DNA of 64,000 bases from Patescibacteria group bacterium (GCA_018062825.1 JAGORL010000001.1:247074-311073), one strand, 5' to 3'; numbered from the stretch's first letter, positions 1,771 to 44,233 are shown. Notes: generated by a model from the letters alone, not told the origin. Made by a program: numbers and translations.

Positions 1771-3657
1771 ATGAGTGAACAGCGTCCCCGTCTCGACCAC
1801 GAAAACATGATCGTCTACTTCGGCCAAACAAATTTCCGCAATGAAATGCGGAAATTTGGTATTAAGACCGATGATCGTCGTCGGCACGTCTATGTGATCG
1901 GTAAGACGGGTATGGGTAAAACCACGCTCCTTGAAAACATGATCTTAGCGGATATTTACGCTGGGCATGGTTGCTGCTACGTAGACCCGCACGGCGATAC
2001 CGCTGAGAAGCTTTTAGACTACATTCCGGCATGGCGTATTAATGACGTCGTGTACTTCAATCCATCAGACGCGGAACACCCGATCGGTTTCAATATTTTA
2101 GAGGCGATCGATCCGACCATGAAGAACCTGGTGGCGAGCGCCCTCATGTCGGTTTTTAAAAAGATCTGGGAGAACGTGTGGAGTGCACGCATGGAGTACA
2201 TCTTGAACAACACCATCTTGGCGCTTTTGGATACTCCGGGAACCACCATGCTTGGTGTAAACCGCATGTTGTCAGATAAGGATTATCGTTTAGAGATCGT
2301 TAAAAACATCAAAGATCCAATCGTGAAGCAGTTCTGGGTCCAAGAGTTTGCGGCTTATGATGCAAAGTTCGCCACTGAAGCAGTAGCGCCGATTCAAAAC
2401 AAGATTGGTCAGTTTATTTCGTCCGAGGTGATTCGTAACATTGTTGCGCAGGCAAACTCTTCCATCAATCTTCGGGAGATCATGGATAAAGGCAAGATTT
2501 TCATCATCAACCTTTCAAAAGGTCGTGTTGGTGAAGATGCCATGCGTCTTTTGGGCGGCATGCTCATCACTAAAATGCAGGTTGCGGCCATGGAGCGCGT
2601 GAACATGCCAGAAAAAGAGCGTCGCGATTTTTACCTCTACGTGGACGAGTTTCAGAACTTCGCCGTTGATTCCTTTGCGAGCATTCTTTCCGAGGCGCGT
2701 AAGTATCGTTTGAGTTTAATCATGGCGCACCAGTACATTACGCAGCTCTCTGAGCCGGTACGTGATGCAGTTTTCGGTAACGTTGGTACGATTATTTCGT
2801 TCCGTGTTGGCAGTATGGATGCCGAATTCCTTGAAACGGAATTTGCTCCACGCTTTACCGCAAACGACATTCTTAACCTGCCAAAATACGCCATCTACCT
2901 CAAGTTGATGATCGATGGCGTAGCAAGTCAGCCATTTTCGGCCGCCACGTTGCCACCGATTGCTCAGCGCACTGGTTCCATGGAGAAGGTTGTTCAGCAG
3001 TCGCGTGAGCGTTACGGCGGCAACCGTCAGCAGATTCAGGATAAAGTGGCCGTTTGGAGCGGTTTCGGACCAGATACAGACGTTGATGAAAAGATGGCCG
3101 AAGTATCAAAAGCTAAAAAAGATGCCAAGAAAGAGCGTTACATGCACGAGTATACGTGCTCACGTTGCGGTACGGTCTTTAAGTTGCCAATCGAACTTGA
3201 TCGCTCTCGCCCAATCTACTGTGAAGCCTGTAAGCCGATCATTGACTCTGAGCGGCAGAAGCGTGGCGGAAAGCCAAGCGGTGGAGCTAAGGGCCCATCC
3301 TCTAGTGGTGGCTCAAGGCAAGGTGGCGGCGGTGATCGTGCACGAGATCGTCAATCACAGCCAGTTGTCGCACGCCCGCCTTCGGTGCGTGATGGGGAGA
3401 TTATTACAAAGCCTGCGGTTGAAAAGAGTGCATCACTTGCGGATCTTGGCGGCGGTAAGATGCCAGTAAAGGAAGCGCCAAAGCCACAACCGCCAAAAGA
3501 TGAGAGAGCACCCCAAGCACAGGAACAAAGGGCGCCAAAAGAAACGCCATCGGTACAGCCAAAGAAGGAAGAGTTAAAGGCTGACGTTGCTCAGTCTCCA
3601 GCGCTTACTTCAAGTGCTAAGGTTGCCGTCTTACCAAACGAGCGCATCACGTTCTAG
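1771..3657 (+). CDS. TrwB/VirD4/TraD-type (type IV coupling protein-like) P-loop ATPase lacking an N-terminal membrane anchor, with a C-terminal CxxC...CxxC zinc ribbon and a low-complexity K/P/Q-rich tail
   Basis: Walker A VIGKTGMGKTT is followed by CYVDPHGD, which resembles the TrwB IVDPNGD motif. Walker B is FYLYVDEFQNF. C-terminus has CSRCGTVFKLPIELDRSRPIYCEAC followed by a G/S/P/K-rich tail. Confidence 0.65.
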   Translation: MSEQRPRLDHENMIVYFGQTNFRNEMRKFGIKTDDRRRHVYVIGKTGMGKTTLLENMILADIYAGHGCCYVDPHGDTAEKLLDYIPAWRINDVVYFNPSDAEHPIGFNILEAIDPTMKNLVASALMSVFKKIWENVWSARMEYILNNTILALLDTPGTTMLGVNRMLSDKDYRLEIVKNIKDPIVKQFWVQEFAAYDAKFATEAVAPIQNKIGQFISSEVIRNIVAQANSSINLREIMDKGKIFIINLSKGRVGEDAMRLLGGMLITKMQVAAMERVNMPEKERRDFYLYVDEFQNFAVDSFASILSEARKYRLSLIMAHQYITQLSEPVRDAVFGNVGTIISFRVGSMDAEFLETEFAPRFTANDILNLPKYAIYLKLMIDGVASQPFSAATLPPIAQRTGSMEKVVQQSRERYGGNRQQIQDKVAVWSGFGPDTDVDEKMAEVSKAKKDAKKERYMHEYTCSRCGTVFKLPIELDRSRPIYCEACKPIIDSERQKRGGKPSGGAKGPSSSGGSRQGGGGDRARDRQSQPVVARPPSVRDGEIITKPAVEKSASLADLGGGKMPVKEAPKPQPPKDERAPQAQEQRAPKETPSVQPKKEELKADVAQSPALTSSAKVAVLPNERITF

Positions 3658-11848: not shown

Positions 11849-12982
11849 ATGGGTCTCTTTGGTGGTAACAAAAACGCAGAGGAGCAGTTTGTTGGCGTGG
11901 TTGGCGTTGATATTGGTACCTCCGGTATCAAAATGGTCGAATTAACCCCGGAAAAGGGTCGACCAAAGCTCTCAACCTACGGCTATTCGGATGAAAAGAC
12001 TCCGTCGCCGGTTGCGCCGCAGTATATTGATAATCCGGAAGCTGCTGCCGAGGTTCTTCGCTCTGTTTACAAAGAGGGACGTTTTCGTGCTACTAAAGCC
12101 GTTGCAGCCTTGCCGGGCTCTGAGGTATCACACGCCATTATTACGCTCCCAGTCCCTCGCTCCGCTAAGGAAGATCTGAAGCCGCTCATTGAGGCGCAGG
12201 CTCGTAAATTCTTGCCACTTCCACTGGAGGAGATGATCTTAGATTCTCAGATTCTAGATAAGAATCTATTGCCAAAAGATGAAAAGTCCGTTGCTGCTCA
12301 GGCTGATCTTGAAATGGCTTCCGGTAATCGCAAGTTTATTCGTGTTCTTGTGACTGGCGCCCCAAAAACCCTCGTCACTAAGTATGTTGCAGCTTTTAAG
12401 GCAGCCAAGCTTGAACTCACCTCGTTAGAGACTGAAGTTTTTGCGGTCACTCGTTCGCTTGTTGGTAAAGATAAGTCGCGCATCATGATTGTTGATATTG
12501 GCGCGCATCGTACAAATATCACTATCGTTGACCAAGGGGTTCCTTACTTGTCACGCGGTATCCGCTCCGGCGGCGCGGCTATTACTCAGGCGCTGGCAAG
12601 CGGCATGAATACCGCCTTTGATGAAGCTGAAAGCATGAAGCGTGATCTAGGCTTCCGCCAAGATGCCGGCTTACCGAAGCCGCTTGAAGAGGCCTTGAAA
12701 CCGATCGTTCATGAGATGAAGTACGCTATTCAGCTCTATGCTGATCAGGAATTCCATGAGAACAAATCAGTAGAAAAGGTTATTCTCACCGGTGGTTCGG
12801 CGCTTCTCCCGGGACTAGTTGATCACTTTGTACGTGAACTCGGATTGAACGTGTACATCGGTGACCCCTGGGCACGTATCGCGTCACCAATGGAGGCGCG
12901 TGGTGTACTTGAAGAGGTAGGAACGCGTATGGCAGTGGCGGCTGGCTTAGCCTTGAGAGCCTTTGATACCGACAAAACGTAA
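11849..12982 (+). CDS. pilM: type IV pilus assembly ATPase-like protein PilM
   Basis: Actin-like fold motifs VGVDIGTSGIKMV and a later DIGA...T; size about 375 aa. Confidence 0.8.
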   Translation: MGLFGGNKNAEEQFVGVVGVDIGTSGIKMVELTPEKGRPKLSTYGYSDEKTPSPVAPQYIDNPEAAAEVLRSVYKEGRFRATKAVAALPGSEVSHAIITLPVPRSAKEDLKPLIEAQARKFLPLPLEEMILDSQILDKNLLPKDEKSVAAQADLEMASGNRKFIRVLVTGAPKTLVTKYVAAFKAAKLELTSLETEVFAVTRSLVGKDKSRIMIVDIGAHRTNITIVDQGVPYLSRGIRSGGAAITQALASGMNTAFDEAESMKRDLGFRQDAGLPKPLEEALKPIVHEMKYAIQLYADQEFHENKSVEKVILTGGSALLPGLVDHFVRELGLNVYIGDPWARIASPMEARGVLEEVGTRMAVAAGLALRAFDTDKT

Positions 12983-12984
12983 CT

Positions 12985-13371
12985 ATGCCTCCGGGAAAAC
13001 CGGGAATCTTTTTAGCGATGTGTGACCGCCGGTTGCGCGACATTCTCGCGGAACGGTTTTCGCTTGAAGGTTGGCGTAGTCAGGCGGGGGATAGCTTTCT
13101 TGATATCGAGCGCAAAGCAGCCCGCTTTCGCCCAACAGTGATCGTGATCGATTCGCAATGCGTTTCCAGTATTACCGATACCATTAAACGCGCTCGTTCA
13201 CTTCCAACGCTTTTAAAAACCCACATCCTGATTTACGCTCCTCATATGGAGCGCGAACAGATCGATGCCGTGCTGACCGCGGGAGCACAAAGTGTGCTGC
13301 TTGCTACGCATATCACCGCCAAGGATGTAATTAACGCTGCCAAAGACCTGTTAAAGCCGGGTCGGGTATAA
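12985..13371 (+). CDS. degenerate CheY-like receiver (REC) domain protein
   Basis: PTVIVIDSQC occupies the phospho-acceptor Asp position, but the conserved T/S and K are not obvious. It sits inside the pilus block where PilN/PilO would be expected. Confidence 0.4.
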   Translation: MPPGKPGIFLAMCDRRLRDILAERFSLEGWRSQAGDSFLDIERKAARFRPTVIVIDSQCVSSITDTIKRARSLPTLLKTHILIYAPHMEREQIDAVLTAGAQSVLLATHITAKDVINAAKDLLKPGRV

Positions 13372-13380
13372 TAGCCGCAT

Positions 13381-13866
13381 ATGCAAAGGATGGAAGTATT
13401 GATCGTCGGGTTACTCATTGGTGCCATCGGGCTTGTCTCTGGGCTTTCAGTCATGGGAGCTCGTGCTCGCTTGCGAGACGTCACGCGCCTGGCGCATGTG
13501 CGTGAATTACAGATGGGTCTAGAGTTTTCGTTTGCTAACCGCGGTACCTATCCAGTTGTTACTACACCAATTGCGCTTGGTGAGGCGCGCACTATTTGTT
13601 TAAGTGCAAACGGGTTTAACCCGCCATGCGGAGAGAACGAGGTACCATACATTGAGTTCGTGCCAGCGCCACCAAGCGCGGGCTTGTCTGGCAAGGCTGC
13701 ATGTGACGGCGTGCGCAATGGCTATTGTTACGCCTCAGATGGGGAGTCATTCCGCATCACTTTTGAACTTGAAAAAGCCAACCGTCAGCTTGGTCTGCCA
13801 AAGGGTGCCAACTGTGCTACGGAAAATGGCATAACCCCTGGCGTTTGTCAGGCTTTTGCGCAGTAG
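13381..13866 (+). CDS. type IV pilin-like protein with an atypical N-terminus
   Basis: Begins MQRMEVLIVGLLIGAIGLVSGL, a hydrophobic alpha1-N-like segment with Glu at position 5 but no G|F cleavage motif. C-terminal Cys pair CATENGITPGVC. Confidence 0.5.
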   Translation: MQRMEVLIVGLLIGAIGLVSGLSVMGARARLRDVTRLAHVRELQMGLEFSFANRGTYPVVTTPIALGEARTICLSANGFNPPCGENEVPYIEFVPAPPSAGLSGKAACDGVRNGYCYASDGESFRITFELEKANRQLGLPKGANCATENGITPGVCQAFAQ

Positions 13867-13867
13867 T

Positions 13868-14662
13868 ATGTTGCCAATCATCGCTATCCCACTAGCAGCG
13901 GTTCTCGGTCTTTTTGCTGGCGGCTTTGCGAACGCCGGCATCATGCGCACCAAGGAGACCTTGTCCTTTACTGCCAACCGTAAGTGCTCAATGTGTGCAC
14001 ACCCAATGCACGGTCACGACACGCTACCAATCGTAGGCTATCTTGGGTTACGTGGTCGTTGCCGGAAGTGTAAGGCCGTTATTCCATGGCAGTACCTCAT
14101 GACTGAAGTGGCCATGGCGGGTCTCTTTGCGCTTTTTGCCTGGCGGGCTTTTACACTGTTCGGCGCTCCAATTGAAGTTGAGGCTTCAGAGGCAATTCTA
14201 CTGTTCGCTCGTGACGCTGGAGTAAGTTTCTTCCTCGTGCTCATTTTCATGTTTGATTGGCGTGCGAGCGTGATTCCTGATCGCCTCAGCATTCCCGCCA
14301 TGTTTATAGCATTACTTGCTAACATCTTGCTTGGCATGCCAGCCACCGATGTTCTACTTGGCGGCTTACTTATCGGTTCTTTCTTTGCAATGCAGTTTTT
14401 CCTCACACGTGGTCAGTGGGTTGGTGGTGGAGATATTCGCATGGGATTACTCATGGGCTTCTTACTTGGTCCGTGGGTCGGTATTGCTGCGTTACTCTTG
14501 TCCTACATTTTTGGAGCATTGGTCGGTATCTTCCTGATCGCCACTGGTCGGCGTCAGCTTTCAAGTCATGTGCCATTTGGCACGTTTATGGCGGTTGCTA
14601 TACTCATCTGTATGCTTGCCGGCGCGCCAATTGTCGACCTCTACATCAAAGCCTTAACGTAG
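13868..14662 (+). CDS. pilD: prepilin peptidase (A24 family)
   Basis: CSMC...CRKC zinc site and multi-TM topology. ORF track TTG at 13856 overlaps the pilin gene; ATG at 13868 chosen. Confidence 0.85.
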   Translation: MLPIIAIPLAAVLGLFAGGFANAGIMRTKETLSFTANRKCSMCAHPMHGHDTLPIVGYLGLRGRCRKCKAVIPWQYLMTEVAMAGLFALFAWRAFTLFGAPIEVEASEAILLFARDAGVSFFLVLIFMFDWRASVIPDRLSIPAMFIALLANILLGMPATDVLLGGLLIGSFFAMQFFLTRGQWVGGGDIRMGLLMGFLLGPWVGIAALLLSYIFGALVGIFLIATGRRQLSSHVPFGTFMAVAILICMLAGAPIVDLYIKALT

Positions 14663-21677: not shown

Positions 21678-21730
21678 ACCCCGCGCCGTTTTCCCTGGAA
21701 TGGGTTGATGCAGCGCGGGGTTTGTGTTTC
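21678..21730 (+). terminator. rho-independent terminator after the dsbA-like gene
   Basis: ACCCCGCGC...GCGCGGGGT stem followed by TTTGTGTTTC. Confidence 0.65.
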
Positions 21731-21756
21731 TATACAGGCAAACAATTAGCTATCCT

Positions 21757-22434
21757 ATGGATCAAACAACACAACCAGCACCACAGGGACAGAAGAAAGG
21801 CCTTTCCACCTCAACCAAAGTAATCATTGGTGTCTTGGTTGCCATGGTACTTTTCGGCATGCTCGCCATTATTGGCGGCGCTATTGTGATAATGGTCGTG
21901 GCTAAGAATATCAAGGAAGCCAACATGGACAGCTACACGTACTCAGATTGGGAGTACACATCCTATGATGACGCCTCTACATCCTGGACCCCGTACACGG
22001 ACACCTTCGGTCGTTTCAGCGGTAGCTTCCCAGCCTACCCAACATATGAAACGGATAGCACGCCAATCACTGGCTCTGACGTTTTAGTATGGTACGACAT
22101 GTACTCCAGTGAAGATCTTGATGGCTACTACAGCATCACGGTCTCTGAGTATCCAGTAGAGATCGATCTTGGTGAGCCAGAAGCAAACTTGAACAATGCT
22201 CTTGATGGCTTGTTGGCTTCAACCGGTGCAAGTCTCGTTACCTCTGGGTTTGAAAGCGTGGAGGGAAACACGGCGCTTTATTACCTAGCCTCTACAAGCG
22301 ACGGCATTTACCTTGAGGGTAAGTCGATCGTGCAGGGCCAAGTGCTCTACCAGCTCATGGTAGCGTATGAAGATGAGGCCGCTTCCGCAGAAGGCCGTGA
22401 ACAGTTCTTCAGCTCCTTTGAACTCAATCAGTAG
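21757..22434 (+). CDS. hypothetical single-TM protein with a Y/T/S/D-rich extracytoplasmic domain
   Basis: TM segment VIIGVLVAMVLFGMLAIIGGAIVIMVV. ATG at 21757; ORF track starts at GTG 21724. Confidence 0.5.
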   Translation: MDQTTQPAPQGQKKGLSTSTKVIIGVLVAMVLFGMLAIIGGAIVIMVVAKNIKEANMDSYTYSDWEYTSYDDASTSWTPYTDTFGRFSGSFPAYPTYETDSTPITGSDVLVWYDMYSSEDLDGYYSITVSEYPVEIDLGEPEANLNNALDGLLASTGASLVTSGFESVEGNTALYYLASTSDGIYLEGKSIVQGQVLYQLMVAYEDEAASAEGREQFFSSFELNQ

Positions 22435-22447
22435 AATAGTCACTAGC

Positions 22448-22479
22448 AAAATAACCCCTCGTGGGGTTATTTTGTTTTT
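22448..22479 (+). terminator. rho-independent terminator (AAAATAACCCC tcgt GGGGTTATTTT)
   Basis: Perfect stem followed by a T-tract. Confidence 0.75.
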
Positions 22480-22537
22480 CGCGTACTTCGGGTACTGTAC
22501 CGCCGGCTACTGACAAACACCCGACCGTGAGGTTGCA

Positions 22538-23377
22538 ATGACGCCACAAGACCGACACTTCCGACAGCTCCTCGAGGAGCGCTGGTCGGCCGGCAAGTTC
22601 GTCTGCATTGGGCTCGATACGGATCCCGACAAGGTTCCTGAGGTCGTCGTCCGAGAGCCGGATGACCCGCACGCCTTCCTAGCCTTCAACAAGGCCATCA
22701 TCGAGGCAACTGGTGACATCGCTGGCGCCTTCAAGTTCAACAGTGCCTTCTACGAAGCGCACGGCGTCGCTGGCCTCATGGGGCTGCGTGACAGCATCAG
22801 GACGGCTCACCGCATCGCGCCCGGCGTACCGGTGATCCTCGACGCCAAGCGCGCCGACATCGACAATACGAACAGCGGCTACGTGCGCTTCGCCTTCGAC
22901 ATCATGCAGGCAGACGCCATCACGGTGAGTCCGTACCTCGGCCGCAAGGCGCTCAAGCCATTCCTCGAGTGCAAGAACAAGGGAATCTTCGTGCTGTGCC
23001 GTACGTCCAACGACGGCGCCGGCGAGTTCCAGGATCTCGAGTGCGGCGGCCTGCCGCTCTACGTGCACGTGGCTCGCAAGGTCGCCACGACCTGGAACGA
23101 GAACGGCAACTGCGGCGTGGTCGCTGGCGCAACGCGCCCGAGTGAACTCGCTACCGTTCGCTTCCAGGTCAACGATCTGCCGATCCTCATCCCTGGCATC
23201 GGGGCTCAGGGCGGGGACGTGGAAGCGACCGTCAAGGCCGGCAAGTGCTCGCGCGGCCGTGGCATGCTCGTGAACTCCTCACGTGGCATCATCTACGCTT
23301 CCTCGGGCAATGACTTCGCGAACGCTGCCCGCCTGGAAGCCCTGCGCCTGCACGAACTCATCACGAGCTTCCTGTAG
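22538..23377 (+). CDS. pyrF: orotidine 5'-phosphate decarboxylase (type 2), GC-rich islet
   Basis: DAKRADIDNT and GIGAQGGD motifs. About 65% GC with GC3 bias; GAGG ribosome-binding site. Confidence 0.85.
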   Translation: MTPQDRHFRQLLEERWSAGKFVCIGLDTDPDKVPEVVVREPDDPHAFLAFNKAIIEATGDIAGAFKFNSAFYEAHGVAGLMGLRDSIRTAHRIAPGVPVILDAKRADIDNTNSGYVRFAFDIMQADAITVSPYLGRKALKPFLECKNKGIFVLCRTSNDGAGEFQDLECGGLPLYVHVARKVATTWNENGNCGVVAGATRPSELATVRFQVNDLPILIPGIGAQGGDVEATVKAGKCSRGRGMLVNSSRGIIYASSGNDFANAARLEALRLHELITSFL

Positions 23378-23419
23378 CAGGCACCGCAACCGACCCCTAC
23401 GCGGGTCGGTTTTCTGTTT
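23357..23419 (+). repeat. direct repeat copy A (pyrF 3' end plus terminator hairpin AACCGACCC..GGGTCGGTT)
   Basis: About 88% identical to 24175..24236. The hairpin arms are conserved; differences are confined to the loop and a 2-nt indel. Confidence 0.7.
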
Positions 23420-23447
23420 AAAAATATCAGCAATTAGTAGAAAATTA

Positions 23448-23476
23448 TTGACAAAATGCCAATTTTATGCTAATAT
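23448..23476 (+). promoter_or_regulatory. near-consensus sigma70 promoter TTGACA-17-TAATAT
   Basis: AT-rich spacer. Drives the GC-rich membrane-protein gene, whose ATG at 23540 has GGAGAGG upstream. Confidence 0.6.
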
Positions 23477-23539
23477 ATTGTGTCTTTATTGACCTTTCGG
23501 CGCCATCAGCCGACTGAGAAACACAGAAGGAGAGGCGCC

Positions 23540-24166
23540 ATGATCGCGCTGATCGTCAAGGTGCTATTCTGGTCAGTCTTCGCCACCATCCTGGCCTGCC
23601 TGGAGATCGAGAGCGAAGGGAAGTACGGGTGGGCGCACAAGGCGCCGACCTGGTACCGCACCACCGGGTTCTTCGGGAAGCTGTACGGCATGATCATGGG
23701 CGGCAAGCCGCTCACCGGCTACCACCTGTTCATGTTCCTCTTCACCTTCATGATCTTCCACGTTCCGTTCTTCTCGGGCGTGGTGTGGTCGGCCGAGGGC
23801 GAGCTTCTCGCCTGCGCGATGTACTTCGCCTGGTGCACGCTGTGGGACTACATCTGGTTCGTGTTGAACCCCGCCTACGCTGGTCGATTCACGCGCAACA
23901 ACGTGTGGTGGCACTCCGGAAGCCCCTGGATCTTCGGACTGTTCCCGCTCGACTACCTGTCGGGCGTCACGCTCTCCTTGGGTCTCGCTGGAGCCGCCGC
24001 CTGGCACTCGGGAGAAGCTCAGCTCTTCGTCGATCACCTCGCGGTCCTCATCGGATTCGGGGCCTACGTCGCACTCATGCACTTGTGCGCGCCCGCCTAC
24101 CGCTACTGGTATGGCTACATGCGCCTGAGTGATGACCGCGACAAGGTCGACATCGTCTATCCCTGA
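23540..24166 (+). CDS. hypothetical integral membrane protein (about 208 aa, W/F/Y-rich TM helices), GC-rich
   Basis: ATG with GGAGAGG 5 nt upstream; ORF track starts at 23480. High GC3 bias. Confidence 0.55.
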   Translation: MIALIVKVLFWSVFATILACLEIESEGKYGWAHKAPTWYRTTGFFGKLYGMIMGGKPLTGYHLFMFLFTFMIFHVPFFSGVVWSAEGELLACAMYFAWCTLWDYIWFVLNPAYAGRFTRNNVWWHSGSPWIFGLFPLDYLSGVTLSLGLAGAAAWHSGEAQLFVDHLAVLIGFGAYVALMHLCAPAYRYWYGYMRLSDDRDKVDIVYP

Positions 24167-24174
24167 CAGGCAAG

Positions 24175-24236
24175 CTCATCACGAGCTTCCTGCAAGGCGC
24201 CGCAACCGACCCCCACGTGGGTCGGTTTTCTGTTTT
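24175..24236 (+). repeat. direct repeat copy B (non-coding copy of the pyrF 3' end plus terminator)
   Basis: See copy A. Followed by a T-tract, so it probably also terminates the membrane-protein gene. Confidence 0.7.
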
Positions 24237-24294
24237 GCAATTTTAAAAGAAGACCGAGCATCCAGGCGTGGATACTCGGGCGGGGGAGCGTTGG

Positions 24295-24732
24295 CTACCG
24301 CGGGCGCGGGTGCCTGTAGCTCGGTTGGTTGTCGGCTGCACGGGCGTACAGGGCAACAATCGGATGAATGCGCGGCTTGCAGCGCTCGCGCAGGGCCTTG
24401 AAGGCGGCTTCGGTGATGTCGACCTCCTCGAAGCTGAGGCTGAACTCGCGCATGTACCGCTCGATGTCGTCGAGCAGTTCGTGGGTAGTACGGCCGCTCT
24501 GGAAGTTCTCGATGTGCTCGAGGTGGCTACGTGCCTTGTGCAAGCGGTACTCGCGAGCACGTGAACGCAGAGTGTCGAGCGTAGTGTTGTAGTCTGCCGG
24601 AAGGCGTTTGCCTTCTACGCAGAGACGATACGTGTTGTAGAGGCTCTCGAGCGCGTTGTGGCGCAAGGCGATCTGGTAGGTCATCACCTCCTCTGCGGTG
24701 GGTTTCTCTGGCCGAACAGGACTGATGGGCAC
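24295..24732 (-). CDS. hypothetical alpha-helical protein (145 aa), GC-rich
   Basis: GTG start with GGAGG 6 nt upstream. Contains an Rx4H-like motif (RSHLEH). Function unknown. Confidence 0.45.
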   Translation of the reverse strand: MPISPVRPEKPTAEEVMTYQIALRHNALESLYNTYRLCVEGKRLPADYNTTLDTLRSRAREYRLHKARSHLEHIENFQSGRTTHELLDDIERYMREFSLSFEEVDITEAAFKALRERCKPRIHPIVALYARAADNQPSYRHPRPR

Positions 24733-24801
24733 GGGACACCTCCAAAGAGGCGCATAAAGGATAGCAGAAAAGGGAAAAAGCCGCTAAGATATTCACCGTA
24801 T

Positions 24802-24876
24802 CGGGCTATAGCGCAGCGGTAGCGCGCTTGCATGGGGTGCAAGAGGTCGTGGGTTCGATCCCCACTAGCCCGACCA
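24802..24876 (+). tRNA. tRNA-Pro (anticodon GGG)
   Basis: Cloverleaf read by hand: C1:G72, D-stem GCGC/GCGC, anticodon loop AUGGGGU with G37, T-loop TTCGATC and an encoded CCA. Confidence 0.8.
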
Positions 24877-29500: not shown

Positions 29501-30097
29501 ATGCCAAAGAAGCTGCTCATCACCGGTGGACCGGGGGGTGGAAAGTCAACCATCATTCGTAGCCTCAAGGAGGAGTTCGAGGGACGTATTGTGTGCGTCC
29601 AGGAGGCAGCAACGCTGCTGCTCGCTACCGGCTTCCCGCCGCCTGGCGAGTCACCGCACCCGGATGATCTTGTTGCCTTTCAGCGCAAGATCTTCACGAC
29701 CATCATGGACCTCGAGTATCACGCCATGAGCTACGCGACACGTGAAGGCATTCCGCTCGTCGTGTGCGACCGCGGTCTCCTCGACGGGGAGGCCTACATG
29801 AACAGCCGTGAGGAGTTCATGCGCACGGTCGGCATCACGGATCGCGCGATGTTCCTGAATGGCTACGACGAAGTGCTCTACGTGGAATCGCCGGCGCCTT
29901 CTGCAGACTTCGTCTGGTCGCGCACGGCGGGCAACGAACACCGCATGGAGCACGATCGCTCCATCGCAGCCAAGATCGAAGGTCGGACTTGGGAAGCATG
30001 GCGCGATCACCCCAAGATCCGCCACATTCCTCACACCTGGGGGTTTCAAGGAAAGGGCGTCATCGTTCGTGCCCGCGTCCTCGAGCTCCTGGAGTAA
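29501..30097 (+). CDS. P-loop NTPase of AAA_28 / NadR-kinase-like type, GC-rich
   Basis: ITGGPGGGKST Walker A, EAAT, and VVCDRGLLDGEAY are typical of AAA_28 kinases. GGGGGAG ribosome-binding site. Confidence 0.55.
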   Translation: MPKKLLITGGPGGGKSTIIRSLKEEFEGRIVCVQEAATLLLATGFPPPGESPHPDDLVAFQRKIFTTIMDLEYHAMSYATREGIPLVVCDRGLLDGEAYMNSREEFMRTVGITDRAMFLNGYDEVLYVESPAPSADFVWSRTAGNEHRMEHDRSIAAKIEGRTWEAWRDHPKIRHIPHTWGFQGKGVIVRARVLELLE

Positions 30098-36351: not shown

Positions 36352-37218
36352 ATGCCAGCAGCCAATTTTCATAAAGATGACCTGCGGGACTGTGCAGCGC
36401 TTGTTAAAAAGACCAAAGAACGAGCTTTTTTTGCTGTTAAATTTCTACCAAAAGACGCAAGAGATGCGGTTTTAGTCCTACGAGCCTTTGTGCACATCGC
36501 CCTGTCTCATAAAGATGCGGGCGATGCGCAGAAGCTCGCCATCTTCAAGGATGCCTGGCGCGCGGCTCTTATCTCAGCCCCACCGATAAGCATTCCAGCG
36601 GCTTGGTTCTCGGTCTTGCGTGCCACAAGTGAGGTATTCCGTGTTTATAAAATTAGCGCCGCGGAAGGAGACCTCTTTTTTACCGCCTTAGAAAAAGATT
36701 TAGATCGTGGTTTGTGTGTGCCGCAATCTGATATCGATGAGATTGAGGCGGGTATGGCAGCGATTGGTCGCATGTTCGCTAAAGCCGTGCAGTGTGAGGA
36801 TGAGCGCGGCGTAATCGCCTGCGGAGAGGTTGCGCGTGCCATGTATCGCACCGAGAGTCTTGTGCGGTTTGAAGCGAGCGTAGTAAAGCATCGTCGCGTT
36901 TCCATGAGTGTTGAGATGTGTAGATCAGTAGGGGTTGAAGACGAGCACGTAACTGCCGGTCGAGTATCACCGGAACTCATAGCGCTGTTCAAGAAACACA
37001 TTTTTGAAACCCGTCAGATCTATCGTGGTGCTGAACGCGCGCTTGCACTACTTCCCATGGGATCATCCCGAGCGGCGCGTGTTATTGCCGCAATATACGA
37101 ATCAAAACTTGATCGCGTTGTTGCACAAAAATACGATGTCTTCCATGGAGCTCGCAAGCCATCCATCACTATGCGTCTACTTGTGTCTATTCGTCTCTGG
37201 ATACGTTTACGCGGCTAG
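36352..37218 (+). CDS. squalene/phytoene synthase-family protein with degenerate Asp-rich motifs
   Basis: FFAVKFLPKDARDAVLVLRAF resembles the CrtB/HpnD N-terminus. The expected ADDIVD motif is replaced by SHKDAGD and the second DxxxD region is also altered. Confidence 0.6.
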   Translation: MPAANFHKDDLRDCAALVKKTKERAFFAVKFLPKDARDAVLVLRAFVHIALSHKDAGDAQKLAIFKDAWRAALISAPPISIPAAWFSVLRATSEVFRVYKISAAEGDLFFTALEKDLDRGLCVPQSDIDEIEAGMAAIGRMFAKAVQCEDERGVIACGEVARAMYRTESLVRFEASVVKHRRVSMSVEMCRSVGVEDEHVTAGRVSPELIALFKKHIFETRQIYRGAERALALLPMGSSRAARVIAAIYESKLDRVVAQKYDVFHGARKPSITMRLLVSIRLWIRLRG

Positions 37219-37271
37219 CCTGGACGCAACAAAACCCGTCGATTCGTCGTTTGCACGACAAGTGACGGGTT

Positions 37272-37712
37272 TTACGTTTGGTGACGCGCTCGCAGCGCAA
37301 CCACCAGGTCCGCGACAATCGGGATGAGTCGATTCACAATCGGCGCCATGAGAAGCGACGTGAGAAAGGTGACCCCGATCGCCTTCGGCAAGTTCGCGGC
37401 CGGCGTCAGGAAAACGACGATCGACGTGAAGGTCGTCGTTTGAGCGACGGCGTACGTGACGCCGCGCACAAAATCCTGACGCATCGTGTGTTCACCACCG
37501 AACCTGTCGACGGCATACGTAGCGATGCGCGTGTAGTACACGCCTAGCCACGTTTTCACAATGATGAGTCCGAAGGCAGCGATCACTGACGCCTGGCCGC
37601 TAAGGCCGGCGAGGTAATAGTTCTTCAGGACCACGAGAAGTGCCCCAAAGAAAAACACCAGTGCGCCAGCGGTCTTGCTGCCGTCACCGGGTTGGTAGGG
37701 GAGTTTTGGCAC
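37272..37712 (-). CDS. hypothetical 4-TM membrane protein, GC-rich
   Basis: GTG start with AAGGAGA upstream; ORF track TTG at 37742. About 60% GC. Confidence 0.5.
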   Translation of the reverse strand: MPKLPYQPGDGSKTAGALVFFFGALLVVLKNYYLAGLSGQASVIAAFGLIIVKTWLGVYYTRIATYAVDRFGGEHTMRQDFVRGVTYAVAQTTTFTSIVVFLTPAANLPKAIGVTFLTSLLMAPIVNRLIPIVADLVVALRARHQT

Positions 37713-37747
37713 GAAAGTCTCCTTGGAAAGAGCGACGTGCAAGGGTA

Positions 37748-38254
37748 CTAGATTTGAGTACGTTTTGCAATAGCAAGACGAGCCTCAGGATCGGCTTCGG
37801 CGTACTCTTTGAGCTTATGTAAAAGAATGCGAGGGGTACTAGCAACGGTGAAGTTGAGATACGTCATGATGGCTTTCAGAAGCCAGTGCTTTGGCGTGAT
37901 GGTGAGTTCATGCGTCAGTCGTGAGCCATCTCTTTCGCGTGTCATGACATAGCGACTTGTCGAGGACGAATGATCGCTCTCGGCTGTATAGGAGAACTCA
38001 ATCCCCGGTGAGGCGATAAGCACTTTGCCAGTACTCATGATTTTCGCTGAGGAGCCGCCGTGAAAGCGATCATTATCAACGCTAAAACGAAAAGTTGAGC
38101 CGCTCTCAACGTCACCATCCCATTCCCAGTGCACGAGGGTATACATCCAGCCGCGTATATGCGTTGGATCAGTTAGAAGTTCATATACCTGCTGTGGCGG
38201 AAGATTAATGAAGATGGAGTTCGTGTAGGTTCGATACATAGTGTGTACAGGCAA
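37748..38254 (-). CDS. SRPBCC-superfamily protein (polyketide cyclase / AHSA1-like)
   Basis: Size and N-terminal pattern (INLPPQQVYELLTDP..GW) fit the SRPBCC fold. Confidence 0.55.
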   Translation of the reverse strand: MPVHTMYRTYTNSIFINLPPQQVYELLTDPTHIRGWMYTLVHWEWDGDVESGSTFRFSVDNDRFHGGSSAKIMSTGKVLIASPGIEFSYTAESDHSSSTSRYVMTRERDGSRLTHELTITPKHWLLKAIMTYLNFTVASTPRILLHKLKEYAEADPEARLAIAKRTQI

Positions 38255-38301
38255 CTATATAAAGGCGTTTGTTTCCTTTATGATGCCAGAGACTTTTACG
38301 T

Positions 38302-39090
38302 ATGGCTATTAAAAATGAACTCTGGGTGCTGGGTGTCGGGTGTGGGGTACTAGGCCTATTAGGTTTTATGTCAGGGCAGGCGCCGCTTCCAAGTGCGTTC
38401 TCTTGGCTGCCGATCATAAGCGTTGTTCTCTTAGCGCTACCTGGATACTTCGCCTTTGTGTCAGACGCCGGTGACAAGCGTGGGGGAGCGGTGCTTATCA
38501 TGCTCGCCCTTGTTGGGCTAGGTATTGAGTACATCGGTGTTACTACCGGTTGGCCGTACGGAACCTTTGCTTACAGTGAGGTGATGGGCGAGAAACTTTT
38601 TGGCGTCGTTCCGTGGACTGTAGCTTTCGCTTGGCCGCCACTTGTTCTTGGTGCGCTGTACGCTGTGAAGTCTATTAACCATTGGCCGCTTGCTGTGCGC
38701 GCTTTGCTTGCTGCACTTCTTTTAGTGGTGATCGATCTAGCCCTTGATCCAGCAGCCGTAGCTCAAGCATTTTGGACCTTTACACCACCGGGGCCATATT
38801 ACGGTGTACCGTGGGTGAACTACGCTGGTTGGCTATTGAGTGGCTTTATTGGAAGCGCCTTGGCGCTGAGTGTGATTAAAAAGAGCGCGCACCACCTGTC
38901 TTGGCGCACAGCCTCAAGTGCAGTCTTATCGATCGCATTCTTTACGGGTGTAAATGCGTCGTATGGTCTGTATGTTCCTATGCTTGTTGGTTTGCTGTTG
39001 ATCGCTGCCTTTTTCTTTGTTCAAGGGAAACGTTTTGTTCGCATCTATGCACATCTCGCAGCTCGCAAGGCACAGCAGGGCCAGAAATAA
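38302..39090 (+). CDS. COG2324 / DUF422-type carotenoid-biosynthesis membrane protein (CruF-like)
   Basis: Multi-TM protein with GWPYGTFAYSE and GVPWVNYAGW motifs. Confidence 0.55.
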   Translation: MAIKNELWVLGVGCGVLGLLGFMSGQAPLPSAFSWLPIISVVLLALPGYFAFVSDAGDKRGGAVLIMLALVGLGIEYIGVTTGWPYGTFAYSEVMGEKLFGVVPWTVAFAWPPLVLGALYAVKSINHWPLAVRALLAALLLVVIDLALDPAAVAQAFWTFTPPGPYYGVPWVNYAGWLLSGFIGSALALSVIKKSAHHLSWRTASSAVLSIAFFTGVNASYGLYVPMLVGLLLIAAFFFVQGKRFVRIYAHLAARKAQQGQK

Positions 39091-40405
39091 GCACGCCATC
39101 GGTGACGGCCCAATCGTGTACTGGATGAATCGTGAACTGCGCTCCAAAGAGAACGCAGCGCTTTTGTACGCGCAAGAAATTGCCATTGAACACAAGCGGC
39201 CTCTCATTGTCGTTTACAATCTAGTTGCAAATTATCTCGGTGGCGGTACTCGGCAATTTGATTTTAAAACATCATCATTTACTGAACTGCACGAAGCGTT
39301 CGCAGTAAAAGAGATCCCGTGGCACGTCATTGTCGGTGAAAGCGAAGAGCTGATTACCTTCTTCACTAAGCATAACGCCGGCGCTGTTATAACTGACATG
39401 TGCCCACTACGCATTTCGCAAAAGTGGGTGAGTGCAATTGCAAAAAAGATGCCGGTTGCGGTTATTGAAGTGGACGCACACAACATCGTGCCTGTCTGGA
39501 CTGCATCTTCTAAGCAGGAATTCGCAGCCCGCACGCTGCGCCCCAAGCTTCATAAGCTCTTGCCTGACTACCTGATCGAACTCCCTCCGTTACGCAAACA
39601 CCCATTTCCAGCGCCTGGAGCGCCATATCATGACGCCGTGATTAAAAAGCTCCGTGCTCCTCTGAAAGAGATGATGCCGGTGTCATTTATTTCAGGAGAG
39701 AAGGCTGCGCATAAGGCTCTACAGGATTTTTTAAAGCATCGACTCATAGGTTACGCAGAGCGTCGCAACGATCCAACCAAAGATGGTATCTCCCATCTGT
39801 CACCATACTTGCACTACGGCATGATTGCGCCACTGACGGTAGCGTTAGCTGTTCGTGGGGCTGATGCGCCACGCGCTGACAGGGATGCGTATCTTGAAGA
39901 ACTCATTGTGCGCCGCGAGCTCGCTGATAATTTCTGTTTTTACAATCCGTACTACGATAGCGCGGAAGGATTTCCTAATTGGTCCAAAGCAACACTTGAT
40001 CAGCATGCTAAAGACAAACGAGACAGTCTCTACTCGTACATGCAATTTGAGAAATCACAAACACATGACCCATTGTGGAACGCAGCGCAGCGGCAAATGG
40101 TGCAGTCGGGAAAGATGCACGGTTACTTGCGTATGTACTGGGCAAAGAAGATCTTAGAATGGACGCCATCAGTTGCAGAAGCAATGCGCATCGCAATTAA
40201 ATTGAACGATACGTATGAACTTGATGGTCGTGATCCAAACGGGTACGTAGGAATTGCGTGGTCAATTGGTGGCGTGCACGATCGTGCATGGTTTCCGCGA
40301 CCAATTTTTGGCACAGTGCGTTACATGAGTGCAAATGGGTGTGCAAGTAAGTTTGATGTTGATGCATACATTGCACATTGGAGTGGCGTGCAGAAACTCA
40401 TGTAG
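39047..40405 (+). CDS. phr: deoxyribodipyrimidine photolyase, class II
   Basis: GPIVYWMNRELR N-terminus and GKMHGYLRMYWAKKILEW FAD-binding signature. Start overlaps the previous gene by about 44 nt; ORF track starts at 39017. Confidence 0.9.
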   Translation: MHISQLARHSRARNKHAIGDGPIVYWMNRELRSKENAALLYAQEIAIEHKRPLIVVYNLVANYLGGGTRQFDFKTSSFTELHEAFAVKEIPWHVIVGESEELITFFTKHNAGAVITDMCPLRISQKWVSAIAKKMPVAVIEVDAHNIVPVWTASSKQEFAARTLRPKLHKLLPDYLIELPPLRKHPFPAPGAPYHDAVIKKLRAPLKEMMPVSFISGEKAAHKALQDFLKHRLIGYAERRNDPTKDGISHLSPYLHYGMIAPLTVALAVRGADAPRADRDAYLEELIVRRELADNFCFYNPYYDSAEGFPNWSKATLDQHAKDKRDSLYSYMQFEKSQTHDPLWNAAQRQMVQSGKMHGYLRMYWAKKILEWTPSVAEAMRIAIKLNDTYELDGRDPNGYVGIAWSIGGVHDRAWFPRPIFGTVRYMSANGCASKFDVDAYIAHWSGVQKLM

Positions 40406-42892: not shown

Positions 42893-42937
42893 CGTACGCA
42901 ACGTAATGCCTGACGACATCGAAGGACCTGTCTTTTG

Positions 42938-44233
42938 ATGTTCGCCGTGACTATGGCTGCCAAAAAAACAACCCGTTCCGTGAAAAACGAAAAGAAAGAG
43001 GTAAAGGCTACCAAGAAGACCGTTGCTGCCAAAGCAAAGAGTAAGCCGGTAGCTAAAAAAGTCGCTGCTGCTCCTAAGAAGGCCGTAAAAGCCGTAGTCG
43101 CCGCACCGCGCCCGCAGCTCAAGCCAGATAAAAAGAGCGCCGCTCCAACAGAGGAGGTCTTGAATCGTATTATTGAGCGCGGCATGACCCGTGGCTTCAT
43201 TACCGAGAACGAACTTCTCTTTTCCTTTGGCTTCATTGAGGATCACCTGGATATCCTTGAGGAGCTTTTAGAAAAAATTGAACGCAAAGGTCTGCACTTC
43301 GTAGAAATGCGCGAAGGATTCCTCGGTGGCAACAAGTCACGTGATGAGGTATACGATAAGTTGCGTATCACGGTAGATAAAAAGGCTGACACCAGTGTTT
43401 CACTTGAGCTGACGCAAGATAGTATTCAAATGTACTTGCGTGAGATTGGTAAGATTCCGCTTTTGAATGCTGAAGAAGAGGTTGCTCTTGCTCGTCGTAA
43501 AGAGCGTGGAGATAAGGAGGCTGATCGCCGCCTGATTGAAGCGAACTTACGTCTTGTTGTTTCGATCGCTAAAAAGTTCGTTGGTAAGCAATTGTCTCTC
43601 CTTGATCTTATTCAGGAGGGTAACGTTGGCTTGTTCCGTGCCGTAAAGAAATTTGAGTACCGCAAAGGTTTCAAGTTCTCAACGTACGCCACCTGGTGGA
43701 TTCGCCAAGCGATTACCCGCGCGCTCGCTGACCAATCCCGCACCATTCGTATTCCAGTGCACATGGTAGAAACCATTAACCGTTTCAAGCAGGTTGAGCG
43801 CCGCCTCATTCAAGACCTTGGCCGCGAACCGCTTTTAGAAGAGTTAGCTGCGGAAATGGACCTACCTCTTGAGAAGGTACAGCACATTCAAAAGATCTCG
43901 CAGGAAACGGTTTCACTTGATACTTCAGTCGGTGATGACGATGACGATTCAAAGCTTGAAGACTTCATTGAGGACGTTAAGAACATCTCGCCAGATAAGG
44001 CCGCTGCTCGTCAGCTCTTGCGTGATTACGTCTTGGAAGCAATGAAAGATCTTACGCCACGCGAACAGAAGATTCTAGAGATGCGTTTCGGCTTAGAGGA
44101 CGGCGTTAGCCACACGCTTGAAGAGGTTGGTCGAGAATTCGATGTGACGCGTGAGCGTATTCGTCAGATTGAGGCTAAGGCGCTTGAGAAGATTCAGCAA
44201 AAAGAAATCATTCAAAAGCTTCGCGATTATTAA
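42938..44233 (+). CDS. rpoD: RNA polymerase sigma factor RpoD with an N-terminal lysine/alanine-rich histone-H1-like tail
   Basis: Regions 2-4 are recognisable ([49 protein letters not shown]). The N-terminus has [41 protein letters not shown]. Confidence 0.95.

Follow-up and report, generated by a model that had tools for sequence, protein, structure and literature searches.

Probable two-layer origin of a GC-rich islet in a Patescibacteria genome: a membrane-protein gene beside pyrF and the duplicated pyrF terminator

How does a single gene with its own promoter come to lie between two copies of a terminator that belongs to another gene? This question is raised by a stretch of 64,000 nucleotides (nt) from a Patescibacteria group bacterium (GCA_018062825.1 JAGORL010000001.1:247074-311073), referred to here as the window, in which positions 22480-24800 form a GC-rich islet next to a tRNA-Pro gene. 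The islet carries pyrF, a gene for a helical membrane protein of 208 amino acids (aa) and, on the opposite strand, an open reading frame (ORF) for an orphan protein of 145 aa (ORF145). An earlier note made from the sequence alone saw in it the insertion of a self-promoted gene into the pyrF terminator, or a recombination scar, and predicted high-GC Gram-positive donors. Every feature which it named is present, at coordinates that are exact or off by at most 1 nt. The islet was probably acquired in two layers, the older consisting of pyrF and ORF145 and the younger being the membrane-protein unit, which came to stand there together with a duplicate of the pyrF terminator.

The duplicated terminator and the empty site

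The features which carry this conclusion are the following.

22538-23377, plus strand: pyrF, encoding a type-2 orotidine-5'-phosphate decarboxylase of 279 aa (TIGR02127, PF00215)
23357-23419, plus strand: repeat copy 1, with the final 18 nt of the pyrF coding sequence, the stop codon, a spacer, a hairpin at 23388-23411 (present in the fold) and a T-run; delimited by alignment
23540-24166, plus strand: gene for the 208-aa helical membrane protein, the inserted cargo (ATG at 23540, not 23541)
24167-24174, plus strand: junction filler of 8 nt, CAGGCAAG, between the stop codon of the membrane gene and copy 2
24175-24235, plus strand: repeat copy 2, with the 18-nt pyrF tail, its stop codon destroyed, a hairpin at 24204-24227 and a T-run
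24254-24279, minus strand: predicted intrinsic terminator of ORF145, opposing copy 2 (11-pair stem and TCTTCTTTT), kept in the related loci L004 and L182
24295-24732, minus strand: ORF145, orphan 145-aa protein convergent with pyrF (GTG start, GGAGG 6 nt upstream)

The two repeat copies agree in 57 of 63 aligned columns (90.5%): 18 nt are identical, and a 2-nt indel and 41 nt at 93% identity follow. The hairpin arms AACCGACCC and GGGTCGGTT are the same in both copies, the changes being confined to the loop and to the stretch 5' of the stem. The pyrF tail and hairpin are indeed duplicated with conserved arms, as had been reported; only the identity (about 88%) and the end of the repeat (24236) had to be corrected. 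Each copy forms a stem of 9 pairs (6 of them GC) with a 6-nt loop and the tail TTCTGTTT, and scores as an intrinsic terminator. A GC-rich stem-loop and a T-run placed after a stop codon are found in both copies, 11 nt past the stop codon in the case of pyrF and 38 nt in that of the membrane gene, and both hairpins are predicted to function as terminators. Copy 2, whose region folds with -35.2 kcal/mol (z = -5.7), is now the predicted terminator of the membrane gene. When the halves of the repeat were searched for at up to 3 mismatches, zero further sites were found in the 64 kb (zero expected from shuffles), and no other direct repeat of at least 30 nt occurs in the window except for one chance-like match of 73%. 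Within the window the repeat is thus specific to this locus and not a common terminator sequence, as the duplication hypothesis had assumed.

Two loci related to the islet lack the membrane gene. In the sister L004, a 12-kb Logan contig, the gene order is that of window positions 16-24.8 kb: ligA, gatC, gatA, lgt, dsbA, the gene for a 234-aa protein, pyrF and a convergent ORF145 homologue. Identity to the window is 92% for GatA, 90% for Lgt and 89% for DsbA. L004 has a single pyrF tail and terminator, and the ORF145 terminator lies 29 nt past the latter. The more distant L182 (pyrF 66%, ORF145 homologue 48%) likewise has the convergent pair, the terminators standing back to back, and lacks the cassette; the right flank of copy 2 in the window, TTTTAAAAGAAGACCGAG, matches the ancestral junction of L182, whose spacer reads TTTTAAAAAGAAGACCGAG. 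The idea of an insertion of a self-promoted gene with target duplication is therefore borne out to the extent that a membrane gene with its own promoter was inserted beside the pyrF terminator and that L004 and L182 are empty, with one terminator copy. The idea of a single acquisition has to be given up, as pyrF and ORF145 already stand at the same place, GC-rich, in L004 and predate the cassette. A strain variant, L006 (Logan SRR26425201), is 98% identical to the window, with 23 differences in 1181 nt; its contig ends at 23382, inside copy 1.

The similarity among the copies sets the order of events. Each window copy is 82-83% identical to the L004 copy, whereas the window copies are 90.5% identical to each other, and the derived states CCTG, CCGC and CCCY, relative to L004, are common to both. 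Since the window copies are closest to each other and share derived states, the duplication took place once the window lineage had separated from L004, and the ancestral state is the empty site. The opposite order, in which the cassette is ancestral and was lost from L004 and L182, is distinctly improbable. Recombination between direct repeats of 61-63 nt would indeed delete the cassette precisely and leave one copy, as seen in both loci, but two independent losses or an ancestral polymorphism would be required, the copies would not be expected to resemble each other (90.5%) more than L004 (82-83%), the GC content at third codon positions (GC3) of the cargo is the highest of the three genes and hence the least ameliorated, and nowhere else among 80 loci does the gene lie within 8 kb of pyrF. 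A Campbell-type integration, in which a circle with the membrane unit and a pyrF tail and terminator recombined at the resident pyrF terminator, would by a single crossover give exactly the topology observed, and the differences between the copies could then reflect the divergence of donor and recipient. Yet the derived states shared against L004 imply that the donor segment would have stemmed from the same lineage, the membrane gene adjoins pyrF in no relative, and 61-63 nt at about 90% identity are a poor substrate for homologous recombination, so that we consider such an integration very improbable. A scan of viral contigs, which also bears on this point, yielded only distant homologues (27-42%) in metagenome-assembled genomes (MAGs) of giant viruses.

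The history that we favour, insertion of the membrane unit into an older islet, would have run as follows. The older layer, shared with relatives, comprises pyrF without pyrE and the convergent ORF145, lying between the terminator of the upstream gene hyp236 and the tRNA-Pro region. In the younger layer, confined to the window lineage, about 755 nt (23420-24174) would have been inserted between the two facing terminators. The incoming DNA, which would have left its own terminator behind, brought the 208-aa gene together with its promoter, the AT-rich stretch before it, a conserved 5' untranslated region (5'UTR) and a strong ribosome-binding site. The resident DNA duplicated along with the insertion would amount to 61-63 nt, from the 18-nt end of pyrF through the terminator hairpin to the T-run. 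In this way pyrF would keep its terminator and the newcomer would gain one that blocks antisense transcription into ORF145; an outcome with the pyrF terminator kept and the convergent ORF145 shielded was probably favoured by selection. Duplication and insertion appear to have been the same event. In a multi-step course, a tandem duplication of pyrF with its terminator would have come first, and the second pyrF body would have been replaced or deleted on arrival of the promoter and membrane gene. The end structure, A-t-[X]-a'-t, would be the same as after target duplication, and an array in the locus L011 (see below) shows that module-sharing arrays exist in the phylum. This course is nevertheless unlikely, as it needs three events instead of one, no trace of a second pyrF body is seen beyond the 18 nt, and the junction filler is templated by the palindrome and is not pyrF-like.

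The filler also points to the manner of insertion. Together with the start of copy 2 it forms a near-perfect palindrome, CAGGCAAGCTC-ATCAC-GAGCTTCCTG (24167-24192), and the left edge of the repeat falls within a quasi-palindrome, AGCTC-ATCAC-GAGCT, in the 3' end of pyrF. Template switching at quasi-palindromes is an established mutational mechanism in bacteria, namely in E. coli (PMC7202029), and templated filler with re-copied flanks is the kind of footprint expected of it. No integrase, resolvase or transposase was found in Pfam scans of 61 ORFs over the 64 kb (outside the islet, those of at least 150 aa), and no terminal inverted repeats were detected by an inverted-repeat scan, in which no arms at 23420-23450 paired with 24160-24175. 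We infer that the insertion was independent of a recombinase; it could, for example, have started from the quasi-palindrome of the pyrF 3' end, through replication template switching or through repair mediated by microhomology. Template switching during replication is weakly favoured as the most likely mechanism.

Composition and age of the older layer

GC content is 0.605 at 22480-24800 and 0.504 in the rest of the window, with a step from 0.41 to 0.63 at the left edge of the islet. For pyrF, the membrane ORF and ORF145 it amounts to 0.64, 0.62 and 0.61, and GC3 to 0.83, 0.89 and 0.78, respectively, compared to a mean of 0.516 (sd 0.084) for the 53 other ORFs in the window (z = 3.2-4.4). The composition of all three genes is thus clearly atypical, as had been noted. 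The Gram-positive donors predicted for pyrF and the membrane protein are not seen among the nearest relatives of these two. The islet is bordered by these features.

21724-22434, plus strand: hyp236, backbone gene upstream of the islet, assigned to no family
22450-22479, plus strand: terminator-like hairpin and T-run of hyp236 at the left edge, AATAACCCC-TCGT-GGGGTTATT followed by TTGTTTTT, read directly and not listed by the terminator scan
24802-24876, plus strand: tRNA-Pro(GGG) at the right edge, 69 nt past the start of ORF145, sole Rfam match in the region (E up to 1)

Abrupt changes of composition at 22480 and near 24800 could also arise in an assembly or binning chimera, with a fragment of a GC-rich organism joined to a backbone of medium GC content. 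We rejected this explanation, the probability of which is close to nil: over 1.5-2.8 kb not a single base separates the window from three independent Logan assemblies, one of which covers 22003-24845 and thus spans both outer junctions, and the left junction is the same in the sister L004. The intergenic DNA 3' of the hyp236 hairpin can be aligned by eye with that of L004. The protein hyp236 itself is only 61% identical to the 234-aa protein of L004 (5187-5891), with saturated synonymous divergence (dS), at about 90% for housekeeping proteins; it is a fast-evolving gene adjoining the islet.

The presence of pyrF and ORF145 in L004 allows the older layer to be dated relative to the backbone. 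In L004 the GC3 of both genes is 0.75 and that of the backbone about 0.48. Between the window and L004, dS is 0.84 for pyrF and 0.83 for ORF145, within the backbone range of 0.63-1.62. Nonsynonymous divergence (dN) is 0.17 and 0.32, respectively, versus 0.02-0.06 in the backbone, that of pyrF being 3-7 times the value for backbone enzymes. As their dS falls inside the backbone range and GC3 is still raised, pyrF and ORF145 represent an older acquisition which has co-diverged with the backbone and undergone partial amelioration. A younger age applies to the cargo, whose GC3 exceeds that of the other two genes.

The pyrF protein matches TIGR02127 (pyrF_sub2) with 238.2 bits (cut-off 110.6), residues 8-264 aligning to profile positions 1-260 of 261, and PF00215 with 95.9 bits. 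In an alignment of 43 sequences, the window protein among them, 61 columns are invariant and all of these are kept, including D102, K104, D107, K66 and the GxGxQGG loop. We take the catalytic role of these residues (the Asp-x-Lys-x-x-Asp motif and others) to be that generally known for the family. The nearest pyrF is that of L004, which is 75% identical, occupies the corresponding locus and has a comparably high GC content. Proteins of about 60% identity follow, mostly unnamed and from metagenomes, and those with an organism name are from Patescibacteria. A high-GC Gram-positive donor of pyrF, which the earlier note had predicted, is therefore rejected; closest homologues of pyrF in the same lineage and with similar GC content were among the findings that the note itself had named as refuting its reading.

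In 20 related loci a gene of the Pribosyltran family (pyrE) adjoins pyrF or lies within about 1 kb of it. We found no pyrE in the window or in L004 by tblastn with two Patescibacteria PyrE queries (E up to 1e-3), and no other pyr family in the Pfam scans, so that pyrF is lone across the ORFs scanned in the 64 kb, as had been claimed. The nucleotide-salvage capacity proposed for it is doubtful, since an orotidine-monophosphate decarboxylase alone offers no salvage route and the usual neighbour in this clade, pyrE, is missing from both the 64 kb and the L004 locus. Our literature search retrieved no paper on pyrF or pyrE in Patescibacteria. The difference in GC content between pyrF and its flanks has a median of +0.01 over 67 loci, the window (+0.12), L004 (+0.10) and a few relatives being outliers.

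ORF145 yielded only itself in a word-based homologue search, and an exhaustive phmmer search gave six proteins with 31-63% identity. The predicted structure is all-helical, with a predicted local distance difference test score (pLDDT) of 81.5; no meaningful fold match was obtained for the model, and no PHROG or PADLOC hit. The linkage of ORF145 to pyrF holds in three genomes (window, L004 and L182). A distant homologue in L183 has SNase, PBP and DnaG genes as neighbours. Past ORF145, a conserved hydrophobic ORF of 56-60 aa (…FKWRVGLVGT.IG…AKL.GA) occurs in L004 (7380-7788) and L182 (51-233) and not in the window, and the tRNA-Pro sequence at the end of the L004 contig is on the strand opposite to that of its window counterpart. 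The right edge of the islet, with the extra ORF of the relatives and the flipped tRNA-Pro, is thus a point of rearrangement. The tRNA gene as a site of integration was considered and is unproven, as neither an integrase nor a repeat of a tRNA fragment was found. In L011, L029, L050, L033 and L037, which are partly non-independent loci, the distance from the membrane gene to a tRNA gene is about 1 kb or less.

The membrane-protein unit and its occurrence in other genomes

The unit in front of the membrane gene consists of four elements.

23420-23447, plus strand: AT-rich 28 nt from terminator copy 1 to the -35 hexamer, the first 7 nt (AAAAATA) matching the L004 spacer
23448-23476, plus strand: predicted sigma-70-type promoter TTGACA-17-TAATAT with TG before the -10 hexamer, agreeing with the consensus at 10 of 12 positions and placed 64 nt 5' of the ATG
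23498-23512, plus strand: predicted 5'UTR hairpin CGGC-N7-GCCG with GACC just before it, conserved in the closest relatives
23527-23535, plus strand: ribosome-binding site AAGGAGAGG, ending 4 nt before the ATG at 23540

The remainder of the AT-rich 28 nt may be donor DNA from upstream of the promoter, its low complexity leaving the origin uncertain. The consensus promoter is bracketed by the repeats together with the membrane gene, as had been described. Its hexamers, their spacing, its position and its conservation in homologous loci are those of a sigma-70 promoter; TTGACA-17-TAnnnT also occurs 5' of the homologues in L005, L007, L010, L011, L173 and others, and an RpoD-like sigma factor is encoded in the window at 42935-44233. 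The leader element GACC(C)-N2-3-CGGC-N7-GCCG is conserved in the window (23478-23539), L005, L007, L008, L010, L011 and L173; instead of a riboswitch it may represent a site of protein binding or a small structural element. The structure is a predicted one, and a six-locus alignment revealed zero compensatory changes over 5 predicted pairs. A riboswitch or other known RNA in the 5'UTR was rejected, there being neither a match in Rfam (E up to 1) nor support from covariation.

In the nearest relatives (L005, L007, L010, L011 and L173) the unit comprises the promoter, the GACC..CGGC-N7-GCCG leader, an AGGAGG ribosome-binding site, the gene and a conserved terminator proper to the unit, CTCGCGCACCCGCGCGGCAAAGAGC...GGGTGC with a T-run. 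This terminator is missing in the window, where the pyrF-tail copy starts 8 nt past the stop codon, which places the insert at about 23420-24174.

The membrane protein is identical to KBC55_01410, a hypothetical protein [Patescibacteria group bacterium] in NCBI on a 406-kb contig. A first search gave 308 homologues, and 229 loci were found in GTDB species genomes. The closest relatives (59-67%) are Patescibacteria, several of them with GC-rich genomes, and Actinomycetota (Thermoleophilia), in which the gene GC content matches the host, form a separate clade at 45-50%; a high-GC Gram-positive origin is thus not supported for this protein either. A neighbour-joining tree places the cargo in a clade of Patescibacteria in which GC3 of the gene ranges over 0.80-0.97 and the flank GC content of the hosts over 0.46-0.67. 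Within this clade the gene matches its host in GC content in L009, L010, L013 and L007 and exceeds it by 0.10-0.15 in the window, L008, L011 and L023. Such a mixture fits transfer from GC-richer Patescibacteria, and a GC-richer Patescibacterium is the most likely source of the cargo.

The GC content of the membrane gene lies 0.08-0.18 above the flanks (GC3 0.65-0.91) in L008, L011, L015, L018, L020, L023, L024-L026, L029, L030, L032, L033 and L037; this excess across hosts of medium and low GC content could result from repeated transfer or from a codon bias specific to the gene. Copies in Wildermuthbacteria also match the GC content of their hosts. It could be argued from such an excess that all three islet genes are native and that their GC-richness reflects selection on codon usage or composition: the membrane gene exceeds its flanks in many Patescibacteria, vertically related pairs included, and pyrF does so in the relatives L088-L090, L107 and L119. 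However, the excess lies in GC3 (0.78-0.89 versus 0.52) and extends to the unrelated orphan ORF145, the median difference for pyrF over 67 loci is +0.01, the membrane-gene copies of Wildermuthbacteria and Thermoleophilia match their hosts, and the cassette is physically missing in two relatives. We therefore judge a native origin to be quite unlikely and retain acquisition in two layers.

An alignment of 46 members has 35 invariant positions, and the motifs E-IE-EG-x-GWA, PTWYR, GKPLTGYH, WDYxWFVLNP, WWH and MRxxDDRD were recognized. The AlphaFold2 (AF2) model is helical (pLDDT 90, predicted TM-score 0.85), and its buried invariant acidic and histidine residues suggest a putative membrane-embedded enzyme or ion- or substrate-binding protein. 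The protein has no Pfam, NCBIfam, PHROG or PADLOC family, no sequence match in PDB and no meaningful fold match, and no paper on the family was found in the literature. Shorter, AT-rich homologues (27-42%, no Pfam family) are encoded by IMG/VR contigs of giant-virus MAGs (L174-L181) and retain the motifs E-IE-EG-x-GW, Y/GYH, (E/W)D-x-WF-x-LNP and WW. As judged by these sequence motifs, the superfamily extends well past Patescibacteria. A phage or defence origin was rejected on the grounds that there were no PHROG or PADLOC hits and that the distant giant-virus homologues of the membrane protein were the only result of the viral scan.

pyrF was found within 8 kb of the membrane gene at none of 80 other loci. 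A functional coupling of the two is consequently unsupported, and their adjacency in the window is an accident of insertion and not an operon. Clustering of neighbours brought out no conserved neighbour of the membrane gene in Patescibacteria; the ORF prediction was crude in high-GC loci and distributed the gene itself over several clusters. In L005 (2065-12025) a homologue (66%) lies amid dcd, dut, gmk, a PRK-family kinase gene (PF00485), thyX and tmk; this context of nucleotide metabolism is probably coincidental, as L169, L171 and L173 show no such link.

Direct repeats containing a hairpin surround the membrane gene at 3 of 31 Patescibacteria loci (scores of 46.5 in the window, 47.5 in L011 and 30.5 in L012). 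Among 266 control genes from 42 comparable Patescibacteria loci, 31 of which are the membrane-gene loci themselves, none reached the same threshold score of 30 (maximum 28.5). The three flanking repeats are unrelated in sequence and contain a hairpin in each case, and the recurrence is suggestive. In L012 (60-1094) the unit is bracketed by two perfect hairpins with 15-bp stems, GAAGTGGCCCGTCTC-TAR-GAGGCGGGCCACTTC, and has some similarity in the left flank; a tRNA-Val gene follows 1.1 kb downstream. L011 (1089-2596) carries a tandem array downstream of tRNA-Pro(TGG), with a 111-aa ORF and the membrane gene as cargos. Each of them is preceded by the same 27-31 nt (T-run and GAGCYGCCAGGATTGAC, -35) and followed by the same 53-58-nt terminator, and a TTCTG remnant of the membrane gene 3' end stands before the upstream copy, which looks like an exchange of cargo between shared promoter and terminator modules. 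It is conceivable, if rather doubtful, that micro-units of promoter, gene and sometimes terminator spread without a recombinase among Patescibacteria, with hairpin or terminator DNA as the target and some 55-65 nt of it re-copied on both sides, the shared modules serving as portable homology for cargo swaps. The window, L011 and L012 would then be independent footprints, and the cargo would be a new membrane-protein superfamily of Patescibacteria, Thermoleophilia and giant viruses.

Several points weigh against insertion of the unit by template switching into an older islet. The comparison genomes number only two, both of them short Logan contigs, and if gene conversion has acted on the two copies, they could look more alike than their age warrants, which would obscure the timing. 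On the right, the end of the duplication is imprecise in AT-rich DNA (24235 to about 24247), and a weak additional similarity of TGCCAATTTTA to TGCAATTTTA, consisting of short matches only, allows a longer duplication followed by a deletion. Template switching is argued from a single filler of 8 nt. No donor above 67% protein identity was found, and hence no donor junction sequence. The excess of 0.08-0.18 in GC content of the membrane gene over its flanks is seen in many Patescibacteria and persists in the related pair L033 and L037, so that a part of it could be specific to the gene rather than a signal of transfer. The promoter and terminator calls are based on consensus. Finally, L011 is better explained by tandem duplication and replacement of cargo, and the three recurrent cases may not reflect one mechanism.

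Raised GC content is also met elsewhere in the window. A 398-aa ORF without a Pfam match (62768-63964, minus strand) has a GC content of 0.68 and a GC3 of 0.93 (z = 4.9), the most extreme in the window; GC content climbs from 0.39-0.48 to about 0.70 at 62800, and the upstream side of the ORF lies beyond the window end. It is probably a further GC-rich acquisition of a single gene. GC3 is also raised in an AAA_28-domain protein (29501-30097, plus strand, 0.74) and a 156-aa ORF without a family (37272-37742, minus strand, 0.73), and small GC-rich acquisitions may be dotted over the genome. Genes for a Squalene/phytoene synthase-family protein (PF00494), a PF04240 'carotenoid biosynthesis protein' and a DNA photolyase are closely clustered at 36352-40405; such a light-related set seems unexpected in a reduced Patescibacteria genome. 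Genes of DNA uptake and transfer, for a TrwB/TraG-like type IV coupling protein and for the type IV pilus (pilM and a prepilin peptidase), lie within 1771-3657 and 11849-14662 and could bear on the entry of foreign DNA into this organism.

Significance and comparison with known systems

Patescibacteria (the candidate phyla radiation, CPR) have tiny genomes with few recognizable mobile elements, and their gain of genes is poorly documented. The locus provides a base-resolved pair of states before and after one acquisition, and illustrates that convergent terminators can receive between them one gene equipped with its own promoter, a duplicate of the resident terminator then serving the newcomer. 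If the hairpin-flanked pattern in two further genomes is due to the same mechanism, it would point towards recombinase-independent gain of genes at terminators. The locus also draws attention to a conserved, unannotated membrane family, widespread in CPR and present in Thermoleophilia and giant-virus MAGs, as well as to a pyrF kept without pyrE and an orphan linked to pyrF in three genomes. Current understanding is not overturned by these findings; the islet is a clean, fairly ordinary example of small-scale acquisition and not a new principle.

With respect to the older layer, pyrF belongs to the same type-2 clade as the pyrF-pyrE pair of Patescibacteria (about 60% identity) and keeps all invariant residues, but in most of the closer relatives with sufficient flank pyrE adjoins it, whereas here a convergent orphan takes that place. 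The islet as a whole resembles small horizontally acquired islets in its atypical GC3 (z = 3-4.4), its site with a backbone terminator on one side and a tRNA gene on the other, the absence of the cassette from relatives and a cargo of unassigned or accessory function. Unlike them it has no integrase, tRNA-derived direct repeat or mobility genes, lies on the 5' side of the tRNA and consists of two layers, the older of which is shared. As regards a tRNA-linked integrative island in particular, no tyrosine or serine recombinase was found among the 61 ORFs and no repeat involving 24802-24876 in the repeat scans of the window; composition is atypical in all three genes, and only the membrane unit is absent from the relatives.

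Insertion sequence (IS) elements typically generate target duplications of 2-14 bp. Similarly to IS elements and miniature inverted-repeat transposable elements (MITEs), the insert is bracketed by directly duplicated resident DNA, but the duplication measures 61-63 nt, terminal inverted repeats and a transposase are lacking, and the insert is a plain promoter and gene; the sole ORF inside encodes the membrane protein, and no transposase family was hit. A certain analogy exists also with integron cassettes, which are single-gene units each followed by an imperfect palindrome, and L011 has two cargos between near-identical boundary modules. In contrast to them, the window unit has its own promoter, and its palindromes precede T-runs and were scored as intrinsic terminators. 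An intI-type integrase was not found in the 64-kb window, and no GTTRRRY/RYYYAAC core sites were seen by eye.

The insertion agrees with template switching at quasi-palindromes in that a quasi-palindrome contains the left edge of the repeat, the filler makes the palindrome more perfect, the resident flank is re-copied and no recombinase is needed. The classical cases, however, are point or short-patch changes within one palindrome, whereas here about 750 nt of foreign DNA would have been introduced and the footprint is seen at one junction. What sets the locus apart from these systems is the long target duplication containing a terminator, together with the uncharacterized cargo.

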